From: Gammaproteobacteria bacterium
GTDB taxonomy: Bacteria; Pseudomonadota; Gammaproteobacteria; UBA6429; Thiohalophilaceae
Assembly: GCA_029880855.1 (NCBI GenBank)
Contig: JAOUNS010000005.1
Span: 145,130 to 209,129, forward strand
DNA: 64,000 bases
Direction: 5' to 3'
Shown: one piece after another, positions 5,152 to 38,526 of the stretch
Layout: each line of letters opens with the position of its first letter
How positions within the stretch are numbered: position 1 is the first letter of the stretch
Program-made: the position numbers and the translations under genes
The notes under the pieces: generated by a model
Told to the model about the DNA's origin: nothing
What the model saw: only the letters and a program-made list of their open reading frames with translations
The model's database searches: none

Positions 5152-5826
5152 TTAATCTATTAATGACGGATTCGTATTCTCTATCACCCTGAACACCGAA
5201 CCGGTCTTCTCCAGTAATAACACAGCCGTTCCTTTTACCAGTTTCACCTCCTCGCTCTCCGGCTCGACCATGACATAATGAGTCAAGCCGTTCTGATCCT
5301 TTACCTTGGCCTCGGCGGCACTGCCTTTTGCCGCCGTGCCAAGGGTGATGACTGCAACGCGTCCAAGCAGTGTCTTCTCTTCCACCGCCTCGGTCTCATC
5401 CTTCGGGATCACTTTCGCGATCCCGCCGGCCAGTACACGCACCACCGGCAAGGCAAGCAACAAGGCAATAAATACAGCCAAAATCCCTGGCAGTAATGCT
5501 CCTGTTAAATCCTGCATGACAGACTGGATACCCAGTCCAATCAGGCCAAAACCGGTCAGAAAGATCACCAGCACAATCAGCGCCGGAACCTGACCAAACC
5601 GCAACCAACCCAGAAACCTGCTGACAGGCGAAACCGTGGATACCGCAGTGCTGTGATCCACATCCATGTCCAGCTCGGGCAGCAGGGTATCAATAAAACT
5701 GGAGATACCCGCCCCCAACAGACTCGCCACGCCTTCGAGCACCGCAATACCCAGCATGACTGCCAGTGCCACAGTAAAGGGCATATTCTGAGCGGCGTTC
5801 AAAAACTCCAGCATATTCATCTTCAT
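5152..5826 (-). CDS. yqiJ: YqiJ/NfeD-like inner-membrane protein (OB-fold C-terminus), flotillin partner
   Basis: 224 aa with multiple TM helices and a C-terminal soluble beta-rich domain. Its start overlaps the upstream stop by 4 nt, and it is conserved next to yqiK. Confidence 0.6.
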   Translation of the reverse strand: MKMNMLEFLNAAQNMPFTVALAVMLGIAVLEGVASLLGAGISSFIDTLLPELDMDVDHSTAVSTVSPVSRFLGWLRFGQVPALIVLVIFLTGFGLIGLGIQSVMQDLTGALLPGILAVFIALLLALPVVRVLAGGIAKVIPKDETEAVEEKTLLGRVAVITLGTAAKGSAAEAKVKDQNGLTHYVMVEPESEEVKLVKGTAVLLLEKTGSVFRVIENTNPSLID

Positions 5827-27463: not shown

Positions 27464-28660
27464 TCAGCCTTTTACACAAACAACCTGACGCAGGGTATGC
27501 ACAACTTCAACCAGATCACTCTGATTTGCCATCACCACGTCAATGTCCTTGTAGGCACCGGGGATCTCATCGATAACACCGGCATCCTTGCGACATTCGA
27601 TACCGGCGGTCTGTTGCTCCAGATCGGCGGTGCTGTAGTGACGCTTGGCCTTGCCACGACTCATACGACGACCTGCACCATGCGAGCATGAGCAGAATGA
27701 ATCCGGGTTGCCTTTACCACGGACAATGTAGGATTTGGCCCCCATGCTGCCCGGGATAATACCCAGTTCATCCACACCGGCACGAATCGCACCCTTGCGC
27801 GTGATGTAGACGTTTTCACCGAAATGATTTTCGATGGCCACGTAGTTGTGGTGACAGTTGATCGCTTCTTTGGTCACGCCAAACTTTGGCAGTTCCTTTT
27901 TCAGCGCATCAACAATCAGACGCATCATTTCACGACGGTTATCCATCGCATAATCCTGCGCCCAGTGCACCGCAGTCACATAGTCATCAAAATGTTCCGC
28001 ACCTTCAGTAAAGTAGGCCAGATCTTTATCAGGCAGGTTGTGGATATGACGTTCCATATCCTTCTGCGCCTGACGAATAAAGTACTGACCAATCACATTA
28101 CCGATACCACGGCTGCCTGAATGCAACATGATCCAGACATCATCATTTTCATCCAGACAGATTTCGATGAAGTGGTTACCACCACCCAGCGTACCCAGCT
28201 GGCGTATCCAGGTCTGGTAGGGCTTCTTCTGCATCTTCAGAATCTTCGGATGCTTCTGCAAGACCTCATCCAGCCCCACACCCAGTGCGCGAATGGTTGA
28301 ATCACGCGCCTTGTCGGTCTTGTGCATATCAAAGCCCACCGGAATGGCGGCTTCGATGGCTGAACGCACACGCTTCAGGTTATCAGGCAAATCTTTCGCC
28401 TTGATAGACAGACGCATGGCATTCATACCACAACCGATATCCACACCAACCGCAGCCGGAATGATCGCACCTTTGCAGGGAATCACTGAACCCACCGTCG
28501 CACCCTTGCCATAGTGCACATCGGGCATGGCCGCGATATGGCTATGCACAAAGGGCAGTTGTGCAATGTTGTACAACTGCTGGTAGGCCTCATGCTCAAT
28601 GTCATCGGTGTAGATCTTGACCGGCACCTTGCCTTTGGTAATTAACTTTTTAACAGGCAT
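27464..28660 (-). CDS. rtcB: RNA-splicing ligase RtcB (3'-phosphate/5'-OH RNA ligase)
   Basis: 398 aa. GGNHFIEI motif, multiple His/Cys metal ligands (HSGSRGIGN, CHHNY), and HGAGR near the C-terminus. No rtcA or rtcR is adjacent. Confidence 0.9.
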   Translation of the reverse strand: MPVKKLITKGKVPVKIYTDDIEHEAYQQLYNIAQLPFVHSHIAAMPDVHYGKGATVGSVIPCKGAIIPAAVGVDIGCGMNAMRLSIKAKDLPDNLKRVRSAIEAAIPVGFDMHKTDKARDSTIRALGVGLDEVLQKHPKILKMQKKPYQTWIRQLGTLGGGNHFIEICLDENDDVWIMLHSGSRGIGNVIGQYFIRQAQKDMERHIHNLPDKDLAYFTEGAEHFDDYVTAVHWAQDYAMDNRREMMRLIVDALKKELPKFGVTKEAINCHHNYVAIENHFGENVYITRKGAIRAGVDELGIIPGSMGAKSYIVRGKGNPDSFCSCSHGAGRRMSRGKAKRHYSTADLEQQTAGIECRKDAGVIDEIPGAYKDIDVVMANQSDLVEVVHTLRQVVCVKG

Positions 28661-32921: not shown

Positions 32922-32997
32922 CGTGATAGGCTGGTCTGAAGAACGGGGATTGAACCCGTAACCCACTGATTATGAGTCAGTTGCTCTCCCAATTGAG
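32922..32997 (-). tRNA. tRNA-Met/Ile2 (anticodon CAU), canonical D-loop (GG) and T-loop (UUCAAUC); G1 opposite G72
   Basis: Cloverleaf folded by hand. Acceptor tcttcag, T stem ACGGG/CCCGT, anticodon stem ACTGA/TCAGT, loop CTCATAA. Confidence 0.7.
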
Positions 32998-33164
32998 CTA
33001 TCTTCACTGGTGCAATTGATCACTCATCGCTTTGTATACACATTGCTATCCCGTCAGGTGAGCGTCTGTGCACAGGTCAGGCATACAGAACCTGAACCGC
33101 TAAGCTAAATCAATGTATCAAGAGCTTCTGAACGATGTGTTAATTCAACACAAAGTTACAATTC

Positions 33165-33191
33165 TTTATGTTTAACGTGTGGCCAGCTTAA
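33165..33191. repeat. Perfect 11-bp-stem palindrome GTGTGGCCAGC-ttaa-GCTGGCCACAC
   Basis: Read directly from the sequence. Lies downstream of the HNH gene between two tRNAs. Confidence 0.5.
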
Positions 33192-33220
33192 GCTGGCCAC
33201 ACGAGATACAAAGGATCACC

Positions 33221-33291
33221 TCCTGTTACTGTAGGGTGGGCATCGCCCACCAATCCAACCTCAACCAAGTTTTTTTTTCGGTGGGCAATGC
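33221..33291. repeat. Compound inverted repeat GTAGGGTGGGCAT...ATGCCCACCCTAC enclosing two GGTGGGC/GCCCACC hairpins and a T9 run
   Basis: The outer 13-nt arms are exact reverse complements, and the inner hairpins are GGTGGGCATCGCCCACC and GGTGGGCAATGCCCACC. Confidence 0.5.
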
Positions 33292-33310
33292 CCACCCTAC
33301 ATTCATGTTG

Positions 33311-33874
33311 TTAAAACATATCACGACGTTCTTTAGTGCACTGCGCCTTCAGAAACTCCATCTGGTCTGCCTGGATATGGCGATTTCGTAAAATCAGCCA
33401 TTCCGCATGGTTCGGTGTATAGGGAACCGCATGCAAACGCATATTGATTTCCTTTAACAACCGATCTGCCTTGCGTTGATTACATGCCTTACAGGCCGTA
33501 ATTACATTGGTCCAGACATCCTTGCCACCGCGTGACATGGGAACAATATGATCCCGAGTCAGGTGTTGGTTTCCCAGTGTGGTCAAGCAATACATACAGG
33601 TATGACCATCACGACGAAACAACTCACGATTTGTCAGTGGTGGTGTCACCGCATACTTTGAGTAACCTTGTATCCCCTTGGCGGCAATAATTGGATGCAC
33701 ATCCATATAGGAACGGGTATTACTCAGACGGTTCGTCCCACCATAAAATCGCATGGTCTGTTCACCAAGTGTCCATGCCACCTGATCACGGGCATACAGC
33801 AATACGGCTTCCTGCCAGTCGATCCAGCCTGTGGCCTGTCCACTTTGACTCAAACGCAAAATCATGTGAGTCAT
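33311..33874 (-). CDS. HNH endonuclease (homing-endonuclease-like) embedded in the tRNA array
   Basis: 187 aa. HNH motif CMYC...HLTRDHIVPMSRGG...NVITACKACNQRKADR. AAGGAG SD 8 nt upstream. Confidence 0.8.
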   Translation of the reverse strand: MTHMILRLSQSGQATGWIDWQEAVLLYARDQVAWTLGEQTMRFYGGTNRLSNTRSYMDVHPIIAAKGIQGYSKYAVTPPLTNRELFRRDGHTCMYCLTTLGNQHLTRDHIVPMSRGGKDVWTNVITACKACNQRKADRLLKEINMRLHAVPYTPNHAEWLILRNRHIQADQMEFLKAQCTKERRDMF

Positions 33875-33938
33875 TTCGTCTACTCCTTTGTTGTATCGTT
33901 AATAGTTAGCCCATTAACAATTGGGAAGTGTTTAAAAA

Positions 33939-34028
33939 TGGCGGAGAGAGTGAGATTCGAACTCACGGCAGGTTTTAACCTACTCCTCGTTAGCAATGAG
34001 GTGCCTTAAGCCACTCGGCCATCTCTCC
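33939..34028 (-). tRNA. tRNA-Ser (anticodon GCU), type II long variable arm
   Basis: CCA encoded. T stem GTGAG/CTCAC with loop UUCGAAU. Long variable arm. Anticodon loop TTGCTAA. Confidence 0.7.
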
Positions 34029-34032
34029 ATAA

Positions 34033-34196
34033 AAGGTGCGTTCGGTCAGGGTATTACGCACATCCATGTGCTCCACCCTTCGGGCCAGCCTCCGGCTGTT
34101 CAAAATTGCTCCCGGCAATTTTGTCGAACTGACACTCCATAAAGGACCCAAATTTTAAGTTTGGTGCGTTTGCCAATTACGCCACGAACGCATGAA
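34033..34196. ncRNA. Structured repeat element, copy A (hairpins GCACA-tcca-TGTGC, CCC-ttcg-GGG, CAGCC-tcc-GGCTG, CAAAATTGC-tcccg-GCAATTTTG; ends complementary)
   Basis: An approximately 90-nt core is shared with copies B and C, with compensatory base changes in two stems. No ORF. Confidence 0.5.
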
Positions 34197-34198
34197 TT

Positions 34199-34271
34199 TG
34201 GCAGGGGATCCTGGATTTGAACCAGAAATGCAAGTGTCAAAGACTTGTGTGTTACCGTTACACTAATCCCC
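34199..34271 (-). tRNA. tRNA-Gln (anticodon UUG)
   Basis: CCA encoded. Acceptor aggggat/atcccct. T stem with G-U. Anticodon stem CAAGT/ACTTG with loop CUUUGAC. Confidence 0.7.
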
Positions 34272-34281
34272 TTTTATAAAT

Positions 34282-34358
34282 TGGTGCGCTCCCGGGGAGT
34301 CGAACCCCGAAAAACCTGGGTCTAAGCCAGGTACGTATGCCAGTTCCGTCAGAAGCGC
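34282..34358 (-). tRNA. tRNA with Leu anticodon UAG but type-I (5-nt variable loop) architecture, discriminator A73
   Basis: T stem CGGGG/CCCCG with loop UUCGACU. Anticodon stem CCTGG/CCAGG with loop CUUAGAC. Variable loop UUUUU. Confidence 0.55.
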
Positions 34359-34365
34359 ATTAAAT

Positions 34366-34441
34366 TGGTCGTGCCCCCTGGACTTGCACCAGGCACTCCG
34401 AGCTTATGAGGCTCGTGCTTTTCTTGCTAAGCTAGAGCACG
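34366..34441 (-). tRNA. tRNA-Met/Ile2 (CAU), non-canonical class: T-loop UGCAAGU, D-loop AGCAAGAA lacking G18G19
   Basis: D stem GCTT/AAGC, anticodon stem CGAGC/GCTCG with loop CTCATAA, T stem CCTGG/CCAGG, all folded by hand. Confidence 0.6.
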
Positions 34442-34495
34442 TTGGGTCGCTACGCACAACTCTGTGTTCTCGCGACATAAGTACATCCATAAAAA

Positions 34496-34571
34496 TGGAC
34501 ACGCGGGTCAGTGTTGCACCGACATAGTCCTGGTTTGCAATCAGGTACATTTCTAACTCTGCCACCGCGTG
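34496..34571 (-). tRNA. tRNA-Cys (GCA), non-canonical class: T-loop UGCAACA
   Basis: Acceptor cacgcgg/ccgcgtg perfect. Anticodon loop TTGCAAA. The D-arm is poorly canonical. Confidence 0.5.
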
Positions 34572-34592
34572 ATGATTTGGCACCCCGGGCAG

Positions 34593-34624
34593 GAATCGAC
34601 AATTTTGTCTGGAACAAAATTGGT
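34593..34624. repeat. Short hairpin repeat copy 1: GAATCGACAATTTTGtctggaaCAAAATTGG
   Basis: 8-bp stem CAATTTTG/CAAAATTG. A near-identical copy lies at 36843-36874. The stem equals the element A-C hairpin in the opposite orientation. Confidence 0.5.
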
Positions 34625-34740
34625 CATCGCGATAGCGATGCCTGTAAGGCACAGGTCATGGATGACCTGTGACAGCCCACACCAATTGTTTTGGAGGCAA
34701 TTGTTCTGCCATTAAACTACCGAGGCATTAACGAGATTAA
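34624..34740. other. Structured non-tRNA spacer (hairpins CATCGC-gata-GCGATG, CCTGT-aaggc-ACAGG, GGTCATGGATGACC)
   Basis: No T-loop and no ORF. Shares the CATGGATG-core hairpin with 34954-34971 and 36899-36918. Confidence 0.35.
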
Positions 34741-34745
34741 ATATT

Positions 34746-34821
34746 TGGTACACCCGGTAAGATTTGAACTTACATCATTCCGGTTAAAAGCCGGAAGCTT
34801 TACCAATTAAGCGACAGGTGC
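34746..34821 (-). tRNA. tRNA-Lys (UUU), canonical
   Basis: T stem GTAAG/CTTAC with loop UUCAAAU. Anticodon stem TCCGG/CCGGA with loop CUUUUAA. D-loop AATTGGTA. Confidence 0.75.
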
Positions 34822-34830
34822 ATTAAAAAT

Positions 34831-34906
34831 TGGACTCCCTGACCTGATTCGAACAGGTATCTCAAGCTTCGTAAACTAGTATTCTGATCCATTGAACTAC
34901 AGGGAG
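34831..34906 (-). tRNA. tRNA-like gene with perfect acceptor and T-arm (ACCTG-ATTCGAA-CAGGT) but unfoldable anticodon arm; possible pseudo-tRNA
   Basis: Acceptor ctccctg/cagggag pairs perfectly. No 5-bp anticodon stem can be drawn around ...ACTAGTTTACGAAGCTT... Confidence 0.35.
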
Positions 34907-34914
34907 TTGGTTGG

Positions 34915-35070
34915 TCGCGAAGGGTGAACGGCGGGATAGGAGCCGTGAACGCCAGGTCATGGATGACCTGGCTGGACTTTGTAATAACTACATGGATGTA
35001 GTTATTACAAAGTGAACCTTCACCTTCCTGGGTAAAAGCCAGGTGTGCTATCTATTACACCAGCGACCGA
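34915..35070. other. Structured spacer containing a perfect 17-bp hairpin (CTTTGTAATAACTACAT-gg-ATGTAGTTATTACAAAG), a CATGGATG hairpin and complementary ends
   Basis: Read from the sequence. The ends GGTCGCG...CAGCGACC pair like an acceptor stem, but there is no T-arm. Confidence 0.4.
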
Positions 35071-35080
35071 AAAATTAAAT

Positions 35081-35156
35081 TGGCACGCCTGGCAGGAGTC
35101 GAACCCACAACCGTTCGGGTAGAAACCGAATGCTCTTCCGATTAAGCTACAGACGT
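35081..35156 (-). tRNA. tRNA-Arg (UCU)
   Basis: T-loop UUCGACU. Anticodon stem TTCGG/CCGAA with loop TTTCTAC. D-loop AATCGGAA. Confidence 0.65.
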
Positions 35157-35171
35157 GTAGTGTCGTGCTGT

Positions 35172-35247
35172 TGGCGCACCTGTGAGGACTTCAACCTCAA
35201 CCTTCCATCTTCGGACGATGGTGCTCTTGCAATTAAGCTACAGGCAC
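35172..35247 (-). tRNA. tRNA-Arg (CCG), non-canonical: T-loop UUGAAGU (G56) with D-loop AAUUGCAA (C19)
   Basis: T stem TGAGG/CCTCA. Anticodon stem CCATC/GATGG with loop GUCCGAA. Confidence 0.6.
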
Positions 35248-35255
35248 ATTTAATT

Positions 35256-35354
35256 TGGCGGAGAGACAGAGATTCGAACTCTGACACCTGCTCCCGCAGG
35301 CCCTCTGTTTTCAAGACAGTCGCCGCTACCCAGACTCTTTCGGCTTACCTCTCC
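35256..35354 (-). tRNA. tRNA-Ser (UGA), type II; D-arm region unusually long
   Basis: T stem CAGAG/CTCTG with loop UUCGAAU. Variable-arm hairpin CCTGC-tccc-GCAGG. Anticodon loop CUUGAAA. Confidence 0.55.
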
Positions 35355-35360
35355 ATAATT

Positions 35361-35435
35361 TGGTCATCGCCATCGGAATTGCACCGATACCTTCTGTATG
35401 TAACACAGATGTTCTGCTGTTAAACTAGGCGACAT
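35361..35435 (-). tRNA. tRNA-Val (UAC), non-canonical class: T-loop UGCAAUU, D-loop AACAGCA
   Basis: T stem ATCGG/CCGAT. Anticodon stem TCTGT/ACAGA with loop GUUACAU. Confidence 0.6.
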
Positions 35436-35442
35436 TTATTTC

Positions 35443-35619
35443 TTAAGCATAGGGCCGAATCAAATCCAGCAATTCATCCAGTTTTGGGTTATTCCTGTTT
35501 TCGATCCAGGCATTGGCCAATATCCAGCGAAAATTTGCCGGTAAAGGCGTTATCCGGTTGTCAGGAATACGTAGCTGACGACACAAGCGTTGAAATTTGT
35601 TTAACTCGATATTATTCAT
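35443..35619 (-). CDS. Small ORF (58 aa, MNNIELNKFQRLCRQLRIPDNRITPLPANFRWILANAWIENRNNPKLDELLDLIRPYA) inside the tRNA array
   Basis: Perfect AGGAGG SD 6 nt upstream of the ATG. It fills the spacer between tRNA-Val and tRNA-His, and is below the 60-aa cutoff of the ORF track. Confidence 0.45.
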   Translation of the reverse strand: MNNIELNKFQRLCRQLRIPDNRITPLPANFRWILANAWIENRNNPKLDELLDLIRPYA

Positions 35620-35651
35620 AAACTACCTCCTGTAAATTAGGCCAAAAAGAT

Positions 35652-35728
35652 TGGGTTGGCTGAACGGACTCGAACCGATATCGTCATGATTCACATTCAT
35701 GGGCTTTACCAATTAAGCTACAACCAAC
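35652..35728 (-). tRNA. tRNA-His (GUG) with encoded G-1 and discriminator C73
   Basis: Anticodon stem CATGA/TCATG with loop AUGUGAA. D-loop AATTGGTA. T-loop UUCGAGU. The extra 5' G pairs with C73, the His identity element. Confidence 0.75.
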
Positions 35729-35737
35729 ATTGAAAAT

Positions 35738-35815
35738 TGGTCCGTACAAAAGGATTCGAACCCTTGACCTCCTGGCCCCAAACCAGGCGCTCTTCGCAGA
35801 CTGAGCTATGCACGG
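35738..35815 (-). tRNA. tRNA-Pro (UGG)
   Basis: T-loop UUCGAAU. Anticodon stem CCTGG/CCAGG with loop UUUGGGG. 10-nt D-loop without GG. Confidence 0.65.
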
Positions 35816-35821
35816 ATAATT

Positions 35822-35897
35822 TGGTACCTCGATCTGGACTCGAACCAGAAACGCCCGATTATCGGTCGAGTGTTTTACCAATTAAACTATCAAGGCT
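35822..35897 (-). tRNA. tRNA-Ile (GAU), C33 in anticodon loop
   Basis: T stem TCTGG/CCAGA with loop UUCGAGU. Anticodon loop CCGAUAA. D-loop AATTGGTA. Confidence 0.6.
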
Positions 35898-35900
35898 TGG

Positions 35901-36047
35901 GGAACCGGACGGGATTACTTCGTACATCCCTGTACTTCGCCCTGCGAACCAGCCTTCGGCTGTTCAAAATCGCTCCTGGCGATTTTGTCAAACCCGCACA
36001 GACCAGATTGAAGGTCTGGTTGCTTTGACCAATTTGCATACCGGTTC
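35901..36047. ncRNA. Structured repeat element, copy B
   Basis: Same core as copy A, with compensatory changes (GTACA-tccc-TGTAC; CAAAATCGC-tcctg-GCGATTTTG). Ends GGAACCGG/CCGGTTC are complementary. Confidence 0.5.
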
Positions 36048-36053
36048 AATAAA

Positions 36054-36129
36054 TGGCGGGACCGAAGAGGCTTGAACTCTCACCACCCTGATCGACAATC
36101 AGGTGCTCTACCAATTAAGCTACGACCCC
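36054..36129 (-). tRNA. tRNA-Asp (GUC), canonical
   Basis: T-loop UUCAAGC. Anticodon stem CCTGA/TCAGG with loop UUGUCGA. D-loop AATTGGTA. Confidence 0.7.
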
Positions 36130-36178
36130 ATGGTGAATTGGCGAATAGGTTTGTTAAATCACACTCAAAGAATGTTAT

Positions 36179-36322
36179 TTAACAACCCCACTCTCTTTTC
36201 AGTTTCTGTTTATCAGTCCGACGTTTGGACCGTTCAGATTTTTCATGCACACCACCTTTTCGCATCAGTGGATGGTCATGCAAAGGGTTGCGTGGTTTTG
36301 ACACGCGATCTTTTGCTTTCAT
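36179..36322 (-). CDS. Small basic ORF (about 47 aa, MKAKDRVSKPRNPLHDHPLMRKGGVHEKSERSKRRTDKQKLKREWGC)
   Basis: GGAG lies 7-8 nt upstream of the ATG. It sits in a 230-nt tRNA-free spacer and could equally be non-coding. Confidence 0.25.
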   Translation of the reverse strand: MKAKDRVSKPRNPLHDHPLMRKGGVHEKSERSKRRTDKQKLKREWGC

Positions 36323-36360
36323 CTTACTTCTCCGTGGTTAATTAAAGTTGCAAAAAATTG

Positions 36361-36655
36361 GTGGACGGGACGGGGCTATTTCGCACATCCATGTGCTACA
36401 CCCTTCGGGCCAGCCTTCGGCTGTTCAAAATTGCTCCCGGCGATTTTGTCGAACCCGCATCAAATGAGTACCCGGGCATTACTCCAGGCATGGAACATCT
36501 TGGGAAACGCGCACCAGTTGAGACCCGTTACCATAAGCCGCGAACCTGCATCCGTAAACCCGTGGATATTCTCAGTTAACCCATTCAGGATATTACTCCC
36601 CACCATAAGCTAACCGTTTTTTGGTGAGCATTTCCGTTTATGCTACCTGCCCATA
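36361..36655. ncRNA. Structured repeat element, copy C (long form, about 295 nt)
   Basis: The 5' 100 nt are nearly identical to the copy A core. The 3' 190 nt are unique. Confidence 0.5.
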
Positions 36656-36659
36656 AAAT

Positions 36660-36735
36660 TGGTGGAGCTGAGAAGATTTGCACTTCCAACATCCTGCTTG
36701 CAAAACAGGCACTCTACTAGTTGAGTTACAGCCCC
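36660..36735 (-). tRNA. tRNA-Ala (UGC) with G3-U70 identity pair; non-canonical class (T-loop UGCAAAU, D-loop AACUAGUA)
   Basis: Acceptor ggggctg/cagctcc gives G3 opposite U70. Anticodon loop UUUGCAA. Confidence 0.7.
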
Positions 36736-36742
36736 TTAAAAT

Positions 36743-36830
36743 TGGTGGATTGCCCAGGATTCGAACCTGGATACGTCAGAGACTCCTGATTTACAGTCAG
36801 GTGGTGCCGCCCCGTCGCACCGCGCAATCC
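36743..36830 (-). tRNA. tRNA-Tyr (GUA), type II
   Basis: Acceptor ggattgc/gcaatcc perfect. T stem CCAGG/CCTGG with loop UUCGAAU. Anticodon stem CCTGA/TCAGG with loop CUGUAAA. 11-nt D-loop. Confidence 0.7.
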
Positions 36831-36842
36831 AAATAAACTATG

Positions 36843-36874
36843 CGAATCGACAATTTTGCCTGGAGCAAAATTGG
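36843..36874. repeat. Short hairpin repeat copy 2: GAATCGACAATTTTGcctggagCAAAATTGG
   Basis: Near-identical to 34593-34624. Confidence 0.5.
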
Positions 36875-37340
36875 ACGCACGCAATGCGCCCGAAGGGCAA
36901 AGGCCATGGATGGCCTTTGTCAACTTACAAGCCAGAGGCGACGAGGTTACAACTCGTGGGGCTCACCATCTGCCCAACACATCCATGAAAATCAAAGGCT
37001 GAGACTACACCTTTAGCGCAACACCTTTTGTCGGATTACCACCCTCCGTGCGAGGAGAGTGTTGCCGCGTATCCACTTAAACCAACCCGAAGGTTGCGCT
37101 TAAGTAATATTGCATGGCTGCTTTTTTTAACGTGTAGCGATTCACGTGTACCGTAGCGTCTACTCGATATACGTCTTACCGTGTACCTTGCGGGCACTAA
37201 AGAGGAGCAACCTCACCGTGCAGTTGTATATCAATATCCTTTGGCTTGCGGCCGCCGGATCACCTGCCTTCTCTCGCGAGGGCAGGATTAAGCCATTTTC
37301 GACTCTACAGCAGGACGCGTCTTTGCGTTTTTACCTTACG

Positions 37341-37411
37341 GTGAAATCTCGGGAATCGAACCCGAACCAAAACAGGCTAAGTGTTTCGCTCTACCATTGA
37401 GCTACATTTCA
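37341..37411 (-). tRNA. Second type-I tRNA with Leu anticodon UAG; CCA not encoded; G7 opposite G66
   Basis: Canonical D-arm TAGCTCAATGGTAGAGC. Anticodon stem AAACA/TGTTT with loop CUUAGCC. T stem TCGGG/CCCGA with loop UUCGAUU. Confidence 0.5.
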
Positions 37412-37875
37412 AACCTATCAGGATGTGCGCGTCCTGGTGGTTTCATACTGCTTTAACAGTACAAAATGCCACACACCCAATGTCTTTCCACTGTCGTGTA
37501 CTTAACCATGTTTCGAGATATTGTCCCTGATTTTGACACCAGAGCCTTTACCTCTAACATTGCACAGCGCCCTTGTTTACGAGACTCGGACTAACCGCAC
37601 TACTGCTTGCTTCTCGTTGTTCACAACGTTGCCCCCGGTGTTGGCTGGCGACCAACGTCCCATTGCCCCCTTTTCAGGTACGCAATGGTCATACCGGCGT
37701 GCTTACCAACTATCTCCAGCCGACGCTGAAGACTTTGGAAGCGCAGCTTGTCTGAATTGACCTGTCCGTAAAGACAGGTGAAGGGTTATAGGAGACCACT
37801 TCTTTTTCGATATTGCTATCGATTATCGTTGTCAGACCAACACACTTTTTATGTCCGTGCCGGACAATTCAAAAT

Positions 37876-37950
37876 TGGCTCCCGGGGCTGGACTTGAACC
37901 AGCATACAACTGCTTAACAGGCAGGCCACCTACCAATGGTGCACCCAGGA
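37876..37950 (-). tRNA. tRNA-Asn (GUU)
   Basis: T stem GCTGG/CCAGC with loop UUCAAGU. Anticodon loop CUGUUAA. D-loop ATTGGTA. Confidence 0.65.
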
Positions 37951-37956
37951 ATTAAA

Positions 37957-38084
37957 TTTGCTGCAACGGGATCCTTGCTTTGGACTCCTGTCCTCTCGCG
38001 ACATTCGTACATCCCTGTACATCGTTCCGACCTATCGACATCCTGTTCTTATAACAGGCGCTCTACCAACTGAGCTACCGTTAC
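37957..38084 (-). other. Degenerate or interrupted tRNA-like gene: canonical 5' half (D-arm TAGCTCAGTTGGTAGAGC; anticodon stem CCTGT/ACAGG with loop UAUAAGA, UAA-like) but an about 50-nt insert carrying the element hairpin GTACA-tccc-TGTAC where the variable/T region should be
   Basis: The acceptor halves gtaacgg / gcaacgg pair with one G-U. The T-arm is not canonical. Confidence 0.3.
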
Positions 38085-38090
38085 ATTTCG

Positions 38091-38246
38091 TCATACACAT
38101 TGTTATACGGGCCGGGTTTCCCCACCCCGGCTCCCGAAAGTTGGTTCCGCTTTACTTACCCTCGCCTTGTCAGGCAGTAACGAGTAACAAAACAACAGGT
38201 CCGGAACCCTGCCAGGTGCTGCCACACCTCCGTATAACAATGTGTA
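38091..38246. mobile_element. MITE-like or structured element bounded by perfect 18-bp inverted repeats ATACACATTGTTATACGG / CCGTATAACAATGTGTAT
   Basis: The terminal inverted repeats are read directly from the sequence. The interior carries nested hairpins GCCGGG/CCCGGC and GGTTCCG/CGGAACC. Confidence 0.4.
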
Positions 38247-38254
38247 TAGAAAAT

Positions 38255-38328
38255 TGGAGCGAGTACAGGGATTCAAACCCTGACCAGGAGGTTGGAAGCC
38301 TCGCATGCTATCGTTACACCATACTCGC
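38255..38328 (-). tRNA. tRNA-Gly (UCC), T-loop UUUGAAU, D-loop without GG
   Basis: Acceptor gcgagta/tactcgc perfect. T stem CAGGG/CCCTG. Anticodon loop CUUCCAA. Confidence 0.6.
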
Positions 38329-38526
38329 AATAAAGGGGGCATTACCGATAGCAATGCCATACCAACTCCTGGTATGAGACGCGTCGAAGGTTTTAAAAGA
38401 CGCATCTCCCCAAAGCGTAATGCTTCATGCACTACGCGTATAAACACTTCCCAAATTGTTAAAGAGCATTACCGACCATGACATTTCACAATCGAATTTC
38501 CCGGAGGGAAATTATTCGGGGCATAA

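Follow-up and report, generated by a model that had tools for sequence, protein, structure and literature searches.

Three structured repeats, A, B and C, lie within a tRNA array in the 64,000-nucleotide (nt) stretch of gammaproteobacterial contig JAOUNS010000005.1 that was analysed here (the window, whose own numbering is used throughout). Our analysis indicates that A, B and C are probably tRNA genes of this array split by a small non-autonomous mobile DNA element, which consists of four hairpins and targets the T-loop sequence. An earlier reading made from the letters alone, the sequence-only reading, had described them as copies of a discrete non-coding RNA gene. It was right about the presence of three copies with a conserved core, as a 23-nt pattern of the first hairpin occurred 3 times in the window against 0.00 expected, and also about their location within the tRNA transcription unit. 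The proposed gene itself did not survive: its ends and the 40-85 nt that flank the core on either side are plain tRNA sequence, and the repeat is a T-loop insertion.

The split tRNA genes and their inserts

To characterise the copies, every possible internal segment was deleted in silico and the products were run through ARAGORN. When 72 nt were removed from each and the minus strand was read, copy A was called as tRNA-Leu(taa), still at 115% of the default threshold, and copy B as tRNA-Glu(ttc); moreover, the 5' part of copy A scored 27.8 bits against the Rfam tRNA family (RF00005) before any deletion. The sequence-only reading had stated that none of the copies folds as a tRNA, and missed their identity; it was made on the wrong strand, the array strand being minus. 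In all three copies the insertion point falls right after the T-loop sequence TTYGA, at tRNA position 58/59, and removal of the insert would join ...GTCAGTTCGA to CCCTGAC in A and ...GGGTTTGA to ATCCCGT in B. Copy C is more complex: once its T-loop insert had been removed, a second deletion of about 125 nt gave conflicting ARAGORN calls (Gly, Trp or His), and about 170 nt of its inner sequence fitted no assignment; the inner 205 nt had no homolog in any fetched locus, and no Rfam match was obtained. Although the tRNA bodies are unrelated, the insert of A shares 94% identity with that of C and 81% with that of B, so the element has spread among genes.

Several features that had been attributed to the repeat belong instead to these tRNAs. 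Complementary 7-nt ends do exist, but they are the true acceptor stems of the tRNAs, which removes the analogy with retron a1/a2 ends. The 'AAAATTGG spacer' thought to mark the start of each copy is the reverse complement of CCA plus AATTTT, an A/T-rich spacer, at the 3' end of the gene, and the core of about 90 nt comes down to the 72-nt insert plus the T-arm flanks. That the copies might be just decayed tRNA genes, the outcome named at the time as fatal to the idea, turned out half true: the flanks are tRNA genes, and the core is not decayed tRNA.

The 72-nt cores of A, B and C fold into four consecutive hairpins on either strand. In the tRNA sense these are, in order, CAAAWUYGY-CNGGA-RCRAWUUUG, a variable GC-rich hairpin, CCC-GAA-GGG and NNNC-A(N)GGAU-GNNN, and the three copies share with the wider family (see below) the order of the hairpins, the loops CNGGA and A(N)GGAUG and the start GAC..., scoring 80-85 bits with the family covariance model as members of its training set. 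In an alignment of 54 members, 87.9% of the cells pair, compared with 71.8% in shuffled alignments (none of 500 shuffles reached the observed value) and 26-43% in slid controls. The same alignment holds 239 double-change cells (85 in shuffles), with changes on both sides in 19 of 26 pairs. The stems are nearly pure Watson-Crick (482 of the 486 cells in the first hairpin), and G-U pairs, 37 on one strand versus 25 on the other, reveal no clear strand preference. The compensatory changes quoted earlier between the copies, GCACA/TGTGC against GTACA/TGTAC and CAAAATTGC/GCAATTTTG against CAAAATCGC/GCGATTTTG, are indeed present. Of the conserved RNA secondary structure that had been claimed, structure and covariation stand, but the sites, orientations and stems of the family together suit a mobile DNA element no less than an RNA acting as such. 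Specifically, the Watson-Crick stems, the two orientations and the non-tRNA sites fit selection of the hairpins at the DNA level, for example as single-stranded DNA recognised by a mobilising enzyme; an RNA role of the element may still be compatible with the structural data. That the family might be novel was borne out in so far as no Rfam family matches the shared core; on A, B and C no non-tRNA match was obtained with Rfam 15 at the gathering score or at E <= 1.

A scan of the window with the covariance model built from the 54 members found five strong copies, three on the minus and two on the plus strand, all of them inside the array, and the insert in the tRNA-Lys gene as a weak sixth (Table 1). 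These five belonged to the training set, but no other place in the window scored, and evidence independent of the model comes from the pattern search. When A, B and C are reverse-complemented, each of their hairpins lines up with its counterpart in the insert of tRNA-Trp and in the copy between GOLLD RNA and tRNA-Tyr; the loops (CATCCATG, CCCTTCGGG and CTCCNG) and the trailing TCGA are common to both orientations, and the antisense insert that splits positions 54|55 lies at the same TCGA^ junction on the other strand. The tRNA-Phe ortholog, for which no single deletion yielded an ARAGORN tRNA, holds a different module, here called 'gamma', at 37974-38022, which begins with the hairpin GUACAGGGAUGUAC.

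The 'gamma' insert has the form ATG-GUACAGGGAUGUAC-GAAU-GUCGC[variable hairpin]GCGAC and sits at the 3' side of T-loops. It occurs in the window at 37974-38022 and 34446-34490, both on the minus strand, and in related arrays (other loci being designated by L numbers) at L004 6617-6826 and L007 6985-7294, sometimes sharing one gene with the main element, as in the Glu gene of L004. Its inner hairpin covaries between copies (GGGC/GCCC, GCACA/TGTGC and GGAC/GTCC).

Table 1 Split tRNA genes, inserts and neighbouring features (positions in the window)
Feature	Position	Strand	Basis and remarks
Copy A: tRNA-Leu(UAA), class II, T-loop interrupted	34035..34191	minus	ARAGORN after deletion; intact ortholog L004 8506-8591
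Insert of copy A, 72 nt, four hairpins, 'alpha' (tRNA-sense) orientation	34052..34123	minus	After TTCGA; covariance model 84.1 bits; fold z = -2.8
Copy B: tRNA-Glu(UUC), T-loop interrupted	35898..36047	minus	L007 ortholog 5489-5583, uninterrupted T-loop TTCGAGC
Insert of copy B, 72 nt	35916..35987	minus	After TTTGA; last hairpin GUACAGGGAUGUAC; 80.5 bits; z = -4.3
Copy C: tRNA-like gene, 294 nt	36359..36652	minus	Acceptor-like ends, D-arm, T-arm GCGGG/CCCGT, CCA end
Insert of copy C, 72 nt	36377..36448	minus	After TTCGA; 84.6 bits; 94% identical to insert of A
tRNA-Trp(CCA), interrupted between T-loop 54 and 55	34578..34726	minus	ARAGORN tRNA-Trp(cca) after 75-nt deletion
Insert in tRNA-Trp, 75 nt, opposite orientation	34600-34674		Just 5' of TCGATTC; covariance hit 34593-34678 (plus), 72.9 bits
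Fifth element copy, antisense to tRNAs	36844..36926	plus	Between GOLLD RNA and tRNA-Tyr; then TCGATTC; 79.2 bits
tRNA-Lys(UUU), T-loop interrupted	34908..35069	minus	ARAGORN tRNA-Lys(ttt) after 87-nt deletion; ortholog of intact L004 7738-7812
Insert in tRNA-Lys, related, 87 nt	34926-35012		Two CATCCATG hairpins; weak covariance match, 12.9 bits
Decayed tRNA-Phe ortholog	37959..38084	minus	U33 of anticodon loop lost, no CCA; compared with L007 tRNA-Phe
GOLLD RNA	36996-37481	minus	Rfam 154.8 bits; embedded tRNA-Leu(tag); within chromosomal bacterial array near RtcB and HNH genes
tRNA-Ser(UGA)-like gene	35260-35354	minus	Missed by ARAGORN; Rfam only tRNA-Sec, 28.3 bits, sub-threshold; L007 orthologs called tRNA-Ser(tga)
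RtcB RNA ligase gene	27464-28660	minus	Pfam RtcB E = 1.5e-132; syntenic with array
HNH endonuclease gene	33311-33874	minus	At array end

Distribution, target and filled versus empty sites

Family members were sought with a degenerate pattern of the first hairpin, which does not itself require complementarity. It matched 12 viral contigs and at least 120 metagenome stretches, and these matches share the full four-hairpin architecture, with a median unit of 72 nt (108 non-redundant metagenomic units among the matches listed). In E. coli the family is present in 616 of 5,426 complete genomes, at one or two copies each, unannotated and within enterobacterial repetitive intergenic consensus (ERIC) repeats. 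A search of viral contigs with the exact core gave nothing, or chance matches within coding sequence, and the covariance model found only five matches in 1.25 Mb of other gammaproteobacterial DNA. The family is not specific to tRNA arrays: besides the ERIC repeats of E. coli, its sites include prophage-like contigs and the vicinity of housekeeping tRNA genes. It is genuine, widespread, absent from Rfam and essentially undescribed, and the preference that it shows for the tRNA T-loop seems to be new. Nothing relevant came out of literature searches on elements that target T-loops or on T-loop introns in bacteria.

The target is evident from the flanks. TCGAAC directly follows 43 of the 108 units (about 40%, where about 0.4% is expected for a 4-mer), which on the other strand is TTCGA before the unit. 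An intact tRNA gene lies on the same strand within about 600 nt of 30 of the 46 TCGA-type units, compared with 5 of the 65 others, and commonly ends about 70 nt upstream of the unit. Of those TCGA-type units that we examined, many were located in a second copy of the 3' part of that same tRNA, a short way downstream of the intact gene, and fewer in one of two tandem copies, suggesting that only insertions that spare an intact tRNA copy survive. The neighbours of the metagenomic copies are housekeeping genes (serS, ispE-prs, dnaQ), not integrases; a genomic-island or integrase origin of the units in 3' tRNA fragments was rejected on this ground and because the 'island' would measure only about 170 nt. 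Two other assignments were discarded as well, an IS91-type target (GTTC^), the junction being GGTTCGA^, and the name 'BoxC' from E. coli, which denotes a triplex-forming motif.

The contexts of some units deserve description. Beside housekeeping tRNA genes at the metagenome loci L143, L158, L193, L170, L129 and L151, an intact tRNA is followed by a terminator and then by its 3' half, inverted and degenerate, which closes with a GAACC-N4-GGTTC hairpin; next come GA, the unit and a direct 3' tRNA fragment. At L079 8890-9080 and L024 8900-9080 the unit forms part of a longer palindromic element, which has inverted repeats at its outside (GGTTGGCATGGCATTTTCAAGAC...) and additional CATCC(N)TG hairpins to the left and right of the unit; this element is intergenic, about 1 kb upstream of a homolog of the HNH gene, in genomes without a tRNA array. 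In the GC-rich, prophage-like viral contigs L089, L090 and L095-L098 the unit is found at the extreme 5' end of an open reading frame (ORF), beside an AlpA-like gene, where ATGACAAATTCGTCGGGAACGAATTTGGAC, in the tRNA-equivalent sense, would encode MTNSSGTNLD; this arrangement suggests an in-frame insertion into, or just upstream of, a coding sequence.

Comparison of filled and empty sites supports an insertion that leaves its target unduplicated. In the tandem tRNA-Arg genes of L144 one gene reads GGTTCGA[insert]ATCCC and the other GGTTCGAATCCC, and aligned E. coli ERIC copies read GGGGATT[71 nt]CACTC against GGGGATTCACTC, a clean insertion; target duplication beyond a one-base ambiguity is absent at both. 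One E. coli ERIC repeat holds three units. Intact orthologs of the interrupted genes were found for tRNA-Leu(UAA) in L004 and L005, tRNA-Trp in L004 and L007, tRNA-Lys in L004 and Glu in L007, the Glu gene of L004 being split by different modules, while the array of L078 has 25 uninterrupted tRNA genes called by ARAGORN and zero copies of the element. Judged from such orthologs, the uninterrupted genes are the older state and the insert is derived. When the gaps in the L004, L005 and L007 arrays were scanned with ARAGORN after single deletions, no further simply interrupted tRNAs came to light; these gaps contain small ORFs, doubly interrupted genes or other RNAs. At L005 7542-7864 the 3' half of the element (GGCTGGCCTGAAGGGTAAAGCACAGGGATGTGCGTAATAACCCC, 23.6 bits) stands after a 59-codon ORF of the same small-protein family as those between the tRNA genes of the window (see below), and it looks as if this ORF had taken the place of the first hairpins.

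Explanations for the interrupted genes

The element inserts without target duplication next to GA^A, preferably at GGTTCGA^ATCC and in either orientation within the array, where it has reached at least five sites, and it occurs across many bacteria. In the explanation that we favour, the compensatory changes would keep intact hairpins that are recognised by the mobilising enzyme, probably on single-stranded DNA; candidates for this enzyme are a transposase of the HUH/Y1 type or a site-specific recombinase that acts in trans. Insertion would most likely disable the tRNA, or be tolerated at best, and would be unlikely to create a new RNA gene. That it disables the tRNA is argued by the intact copy nearly always kept beside the hit one, and the decay of one interrupted neighbour, the tRNA-Phe ortholog that has lost U33 and CCA, supports the same view.

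Several observations nevertheless weigh against a purely mobile and disabling element. No transposase or recombinase for it was identified in a visual check of the ORFs close to some of the copies, and one or two copies per E. coli genome is a low number, unusual for elements resembling miniature transposable elements with inverted repeats (MITEs). Within the window it is restricted to the tRNA array, and simple insertion does not account for the regular layout beside housekeeping tRNAs, with about 70 nt from tRNA end to unit. Furthermore, Leu(UAA), Glu(UUC) and Trp(CCA) are represented in the array by interrupted genes only, and the exons of copy A form an excellent cloverleaf whose acceptor stem differs from that of the L004 ortholog by two compensatory base-pair changes; selection for tRNA structure has therefore acted on this gene until recent times and may act on it still. 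Finally, the match of the loops to GGA hairpins bound by CsrA would be a surprising coincidence for an element acting only as DNA.

The missing intact genes and the acceptor stem of copy A would fit a reading in which the inserts are intervening sequences removed from the pre-tRNA, an endonuclease leaving a 2',3'-cyclic phosphate and a 5'-OH and the neighbouring RtcB rejoining the exons. In that case functional tRNAs would be made from A, B and the Trp gene, and the inserts would be a bacterial counterpart of the archaeal non-canonical T-loop introns. We consider this quite improbable, although the exons of A, B, Trp and Lys all rebuild canonical cloverleaves and insertion after A58 leaves contiguous the T-loop motif 54-58, which consists of five bases. 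RtcB is encoded about 4 kb from the nearest array end, on the same strand, and in syntenic position in relatives; this argument is weak, however, because RtcB equally adjoins L014 and the insert-free array of L078. Moreover, both orientations occur, the Trp insert splits 54|55, and the element is also found at non-tRNA sites such as ERIC repeats. The intact copy that nearly always accompanies the interrupted fragment at housekeeping tRNAs would be needless if splicing took place, and the Phe ortholog with its related insert has decayed. The scan of 10 neighbouring proteins revealed no splicing endonuclease, nor was there any match to a ribozyme or an Rfam intron; the folds showed four independent hairpins in the insert. 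The alternative offered by the sequence-only reading, that A, B and C are a free-standing and novel family of non-coding RNAs, not tRNAs, with a terminal helix of their own and co-transcribed with the tRNAs, would account for the covarying conserved structure, the missing Rfam match and the position within a tRNA transcription unit. It is scarcely credible in view of the terminal helix, D-arm, anticodon arm and T-stem, all of which belong to identifiable tRNAs; the copies share the inner 72 nt only, and these 72 nt occur elsewhere without such ends.

A further possibility is that the element acts as RNA. Its two GGA loops per unit would bind the global regulator CsrA/RsmA or another conserved RNA-binding protein, with the tRNA body as a scaffold or processing handle and the array partly as a sponge or regulated precursor, a proposal drawn from the loop sequences that we regard as unlikely. 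The loops CNGGA and A(N)GGAUG are conserved throughout the family in the tRNA sense, and in that sense only the unit carries GGA in two hairpin loops, as CsrA-type targets do in two or more. That the loops persist in very distant bacteria suggests a host partner that is conserved as well. Both tRNA operons and ERIC elements are transcribed, and all 46 metagenomic T-loop-type copies lie in the tRNA sense (by definition of the type), no antisense copy being noticed among the matches listed. The CsrA consensus obtained by systematic ligand evolution through exponential enrichment (SELEX) is RUACARGGAUGU and the CsrB repeat is CAGGA(U/A/C)G (PMC7652899); the last hairpin of copy B, GUACAGGGAUGUAC, matches the former, and the common loop CAGGAUG is the latter. 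On the other hand, UCC loops would be presented by the two window copies, out of five, that lie antisense and by the Lys insert, whose two hairpins are antisense as well; G-U pairs are almost absent from the stems with no clear strand asymmetry, long stable stems are said to disfavour CsrA binding, and an extended DNA target GA^ATCC would explain the sense bias. RNA action and mobility could also be combined: the 72-nt unit would then be a mobile 'decoy' module for which tRNA T-loops and ERIC hairpins are safe, highly transcribed places to land, its two GGA hairpins, of high affinity, would bind CsrA/RsmA once transcribed in the tRNA sense, and the interrupted tRNAs would be scaffolded sponges or CsrA-controlled precursors instead of dead genes. 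To this idea we give little weight; in a bolder variant, the units would subsequently be cut out and the adjacent RtcB would join the two halves of the tRNA again.

The array in its setting and comparison with known systems

The tRNA array is dense and occupies about 32,930-38,330 of the minus strand, with roughly 25 genes. ARAGORN called 20 tRNAs in the window, to which Rfam adds the Ser(UGA)-like gene and the GOLLD RNA with its embedded tRNA-Leu. No Rfam match to GOLLD was obtained in the arrays of L004, L005 and L007, the three covered by that scan; L078, which was outside it, has a gap of about 800 nt around its own tRNA-Leu(tag). The relatives L004, L005 and L007 keep the gene order, in which the array is followed by the HNH gene and this by the slipin gene, and they too have RtcB close by. 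The HNH protein has relatives (50-66% identity) in 572 or more genomes of Gammaproteobacteria, among them Pseudoxanthomonas and Lysobacter; almost none of these genomes has a tRNA array, and the gene failed as a marker of related arrays, one being present in only 3 of the 80 loci fetched. It is a widespread chromosomal gene rather than an array-specific homing enzyme. The flanking slipin protein is 100% identical to a protein from a gammaproteobacterial metagenome-assembled genome and has many relatives in marine sulfur-oxidiser-like genomes. In INPHARED no phage resembled the array, and the slipin gene was without viral relative. The window, which matches an 87-kb metagenome contig in ENA, belongs to a bacterial chromosome rather than to any known phage, and the host is an uncultured marine gammaproteobacterium.

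Two other components recur between the tRNA genes. Small ORFs at 36190-36320 and 35443-35620, both on the minus strand, have homologs at L004 6334-6541 and 7082-7286 and at L007 5197-5412; their products are a 47-amino-acid basic protein (MKAKDRVSKPRNPLHDHPLMRKGGVHEK...) and a 58-amino-acid protein (MNNIELNKFQRL...), neither with a significant Pfam match. The small basic ORF at 36190-36320 had seemed ArfA-like, an assignment that was dropped for want of a Pfam match. A structured element of about 150 nt with the closing stem GTTATAC...GTATAAC lies between the tRNA-Gly and Phe/Asn genes in three arrays (window 38090-38258, minus strand; L004 5838-5996; L007 4695-4860). It had no Rfam match, and RNAalifold predicts 57 pairs, 12 with compensatory changes, from only three sequences.

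tRNA genes split in the T-loop occur in Archaea and a few eukaryotes; to our knowledge none have been described from bacteria. In the array studied here, one tiny element splits no fewer than five bacterial tRNA genes at the T-loop, and it would join the small non-autonomous mobile hairpin elements. The family is defined in testable terms, namely a 72-nt four-hairpin consensus, the target GA^ATCC, no target duplication, and filled and empty sites in a model organism. Which enzyme moves it, whether T-loop insertions can be processed or tolerated by bacteria and whether the CsrA-like loops have a function are therefore questions that can be approached in E. coli. In addition, since tRNA finders miss interrupted genes, the tRNA complements of such arrays are under-counted.

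Among known systems, group I introns of bacterial tRNAs also interrupt tRNA genes, including tRNA-Leu(UAA), but they lie in the anticodon loop and not the T-loop, and 72 nt without an Rfam intron match is far below any group I ribozyme. The tRNA introns of Archaea and Cyanidioschyzon, which have a bulge-helix-bulge and depend on EndA and RtcB, share with the element the T-loop intervening sequence in a canonical tRNA and the presence of RtcB nearby. They differ in that here the host is bacterial, no splicing endonuclease was found in the 10 neighbouring proteins, the insert comprises four autonomous hairpins and occurs also outside tRNAs and in both orientations, and RtcB is not specific to the interrupted arrays. 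CsrB/RsmZ RNAs and TwoAYGGAY (RF01731) have in common with it several (A)NGGA(U) loops per transcript, AUGGAU included, whereas the element has long stems, matches no Rfam family at E <= 1, constitutes an insertion rather than a gene, and is antisense in half of the local copies.

The closer likenesses are found among mobile elements. MITEs, REP/REPIN sequences and Rickettsia palindromic elements are likewise short, hairpin-rich, non-coding, polymorphic in presence and located in transcribed regions, and can sit within functional genes. Unlike MITE- and REP-type repeats, the element has ends that are not inverted repeats of each other, makes no target-site duplication and is low in copy number, and it prefers one short target (40% TTCGA) and has four hairpins with conserved loops. 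With derivatives of IS200/IS605, whose Y1 HUH enzyme acts on single-stranded DNA, it shares the lack of target duplication, a place of insertion 3' of one short, specific sequence, hairpins close to either end, a strand-specific logic and Watson-Crick covariation. It departs from them in that no TnpA was seen among the neighbouring ORFs inspected and that its left hairpin abuts the target instead of lying about 20 nt away, so that a link to IS200/IS605 would be one by analogy. The nearest counterpart comes from enterobacteria, where insertions of about 70 bp at specific internal sites of ERIC repeats were reportedly noted by Sharp in 1997 and by Wilson and Sharp in 2006; we take the E. coli units found here to be these insertions. 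As far as we know, they have apparently never been described as an element family of their own or tied to tRNA T-loops. Their target is the ERIC repeat, not a tRNA gene, yet they belong to the same family: the 71-nt E. coli units share the four hairpins, the loops (CATCCATG and TCCTG) and the ...AATTTGTC end, and are present or absent between ERIC copies with no target duplication, exactly as the element is in tRNA genes.

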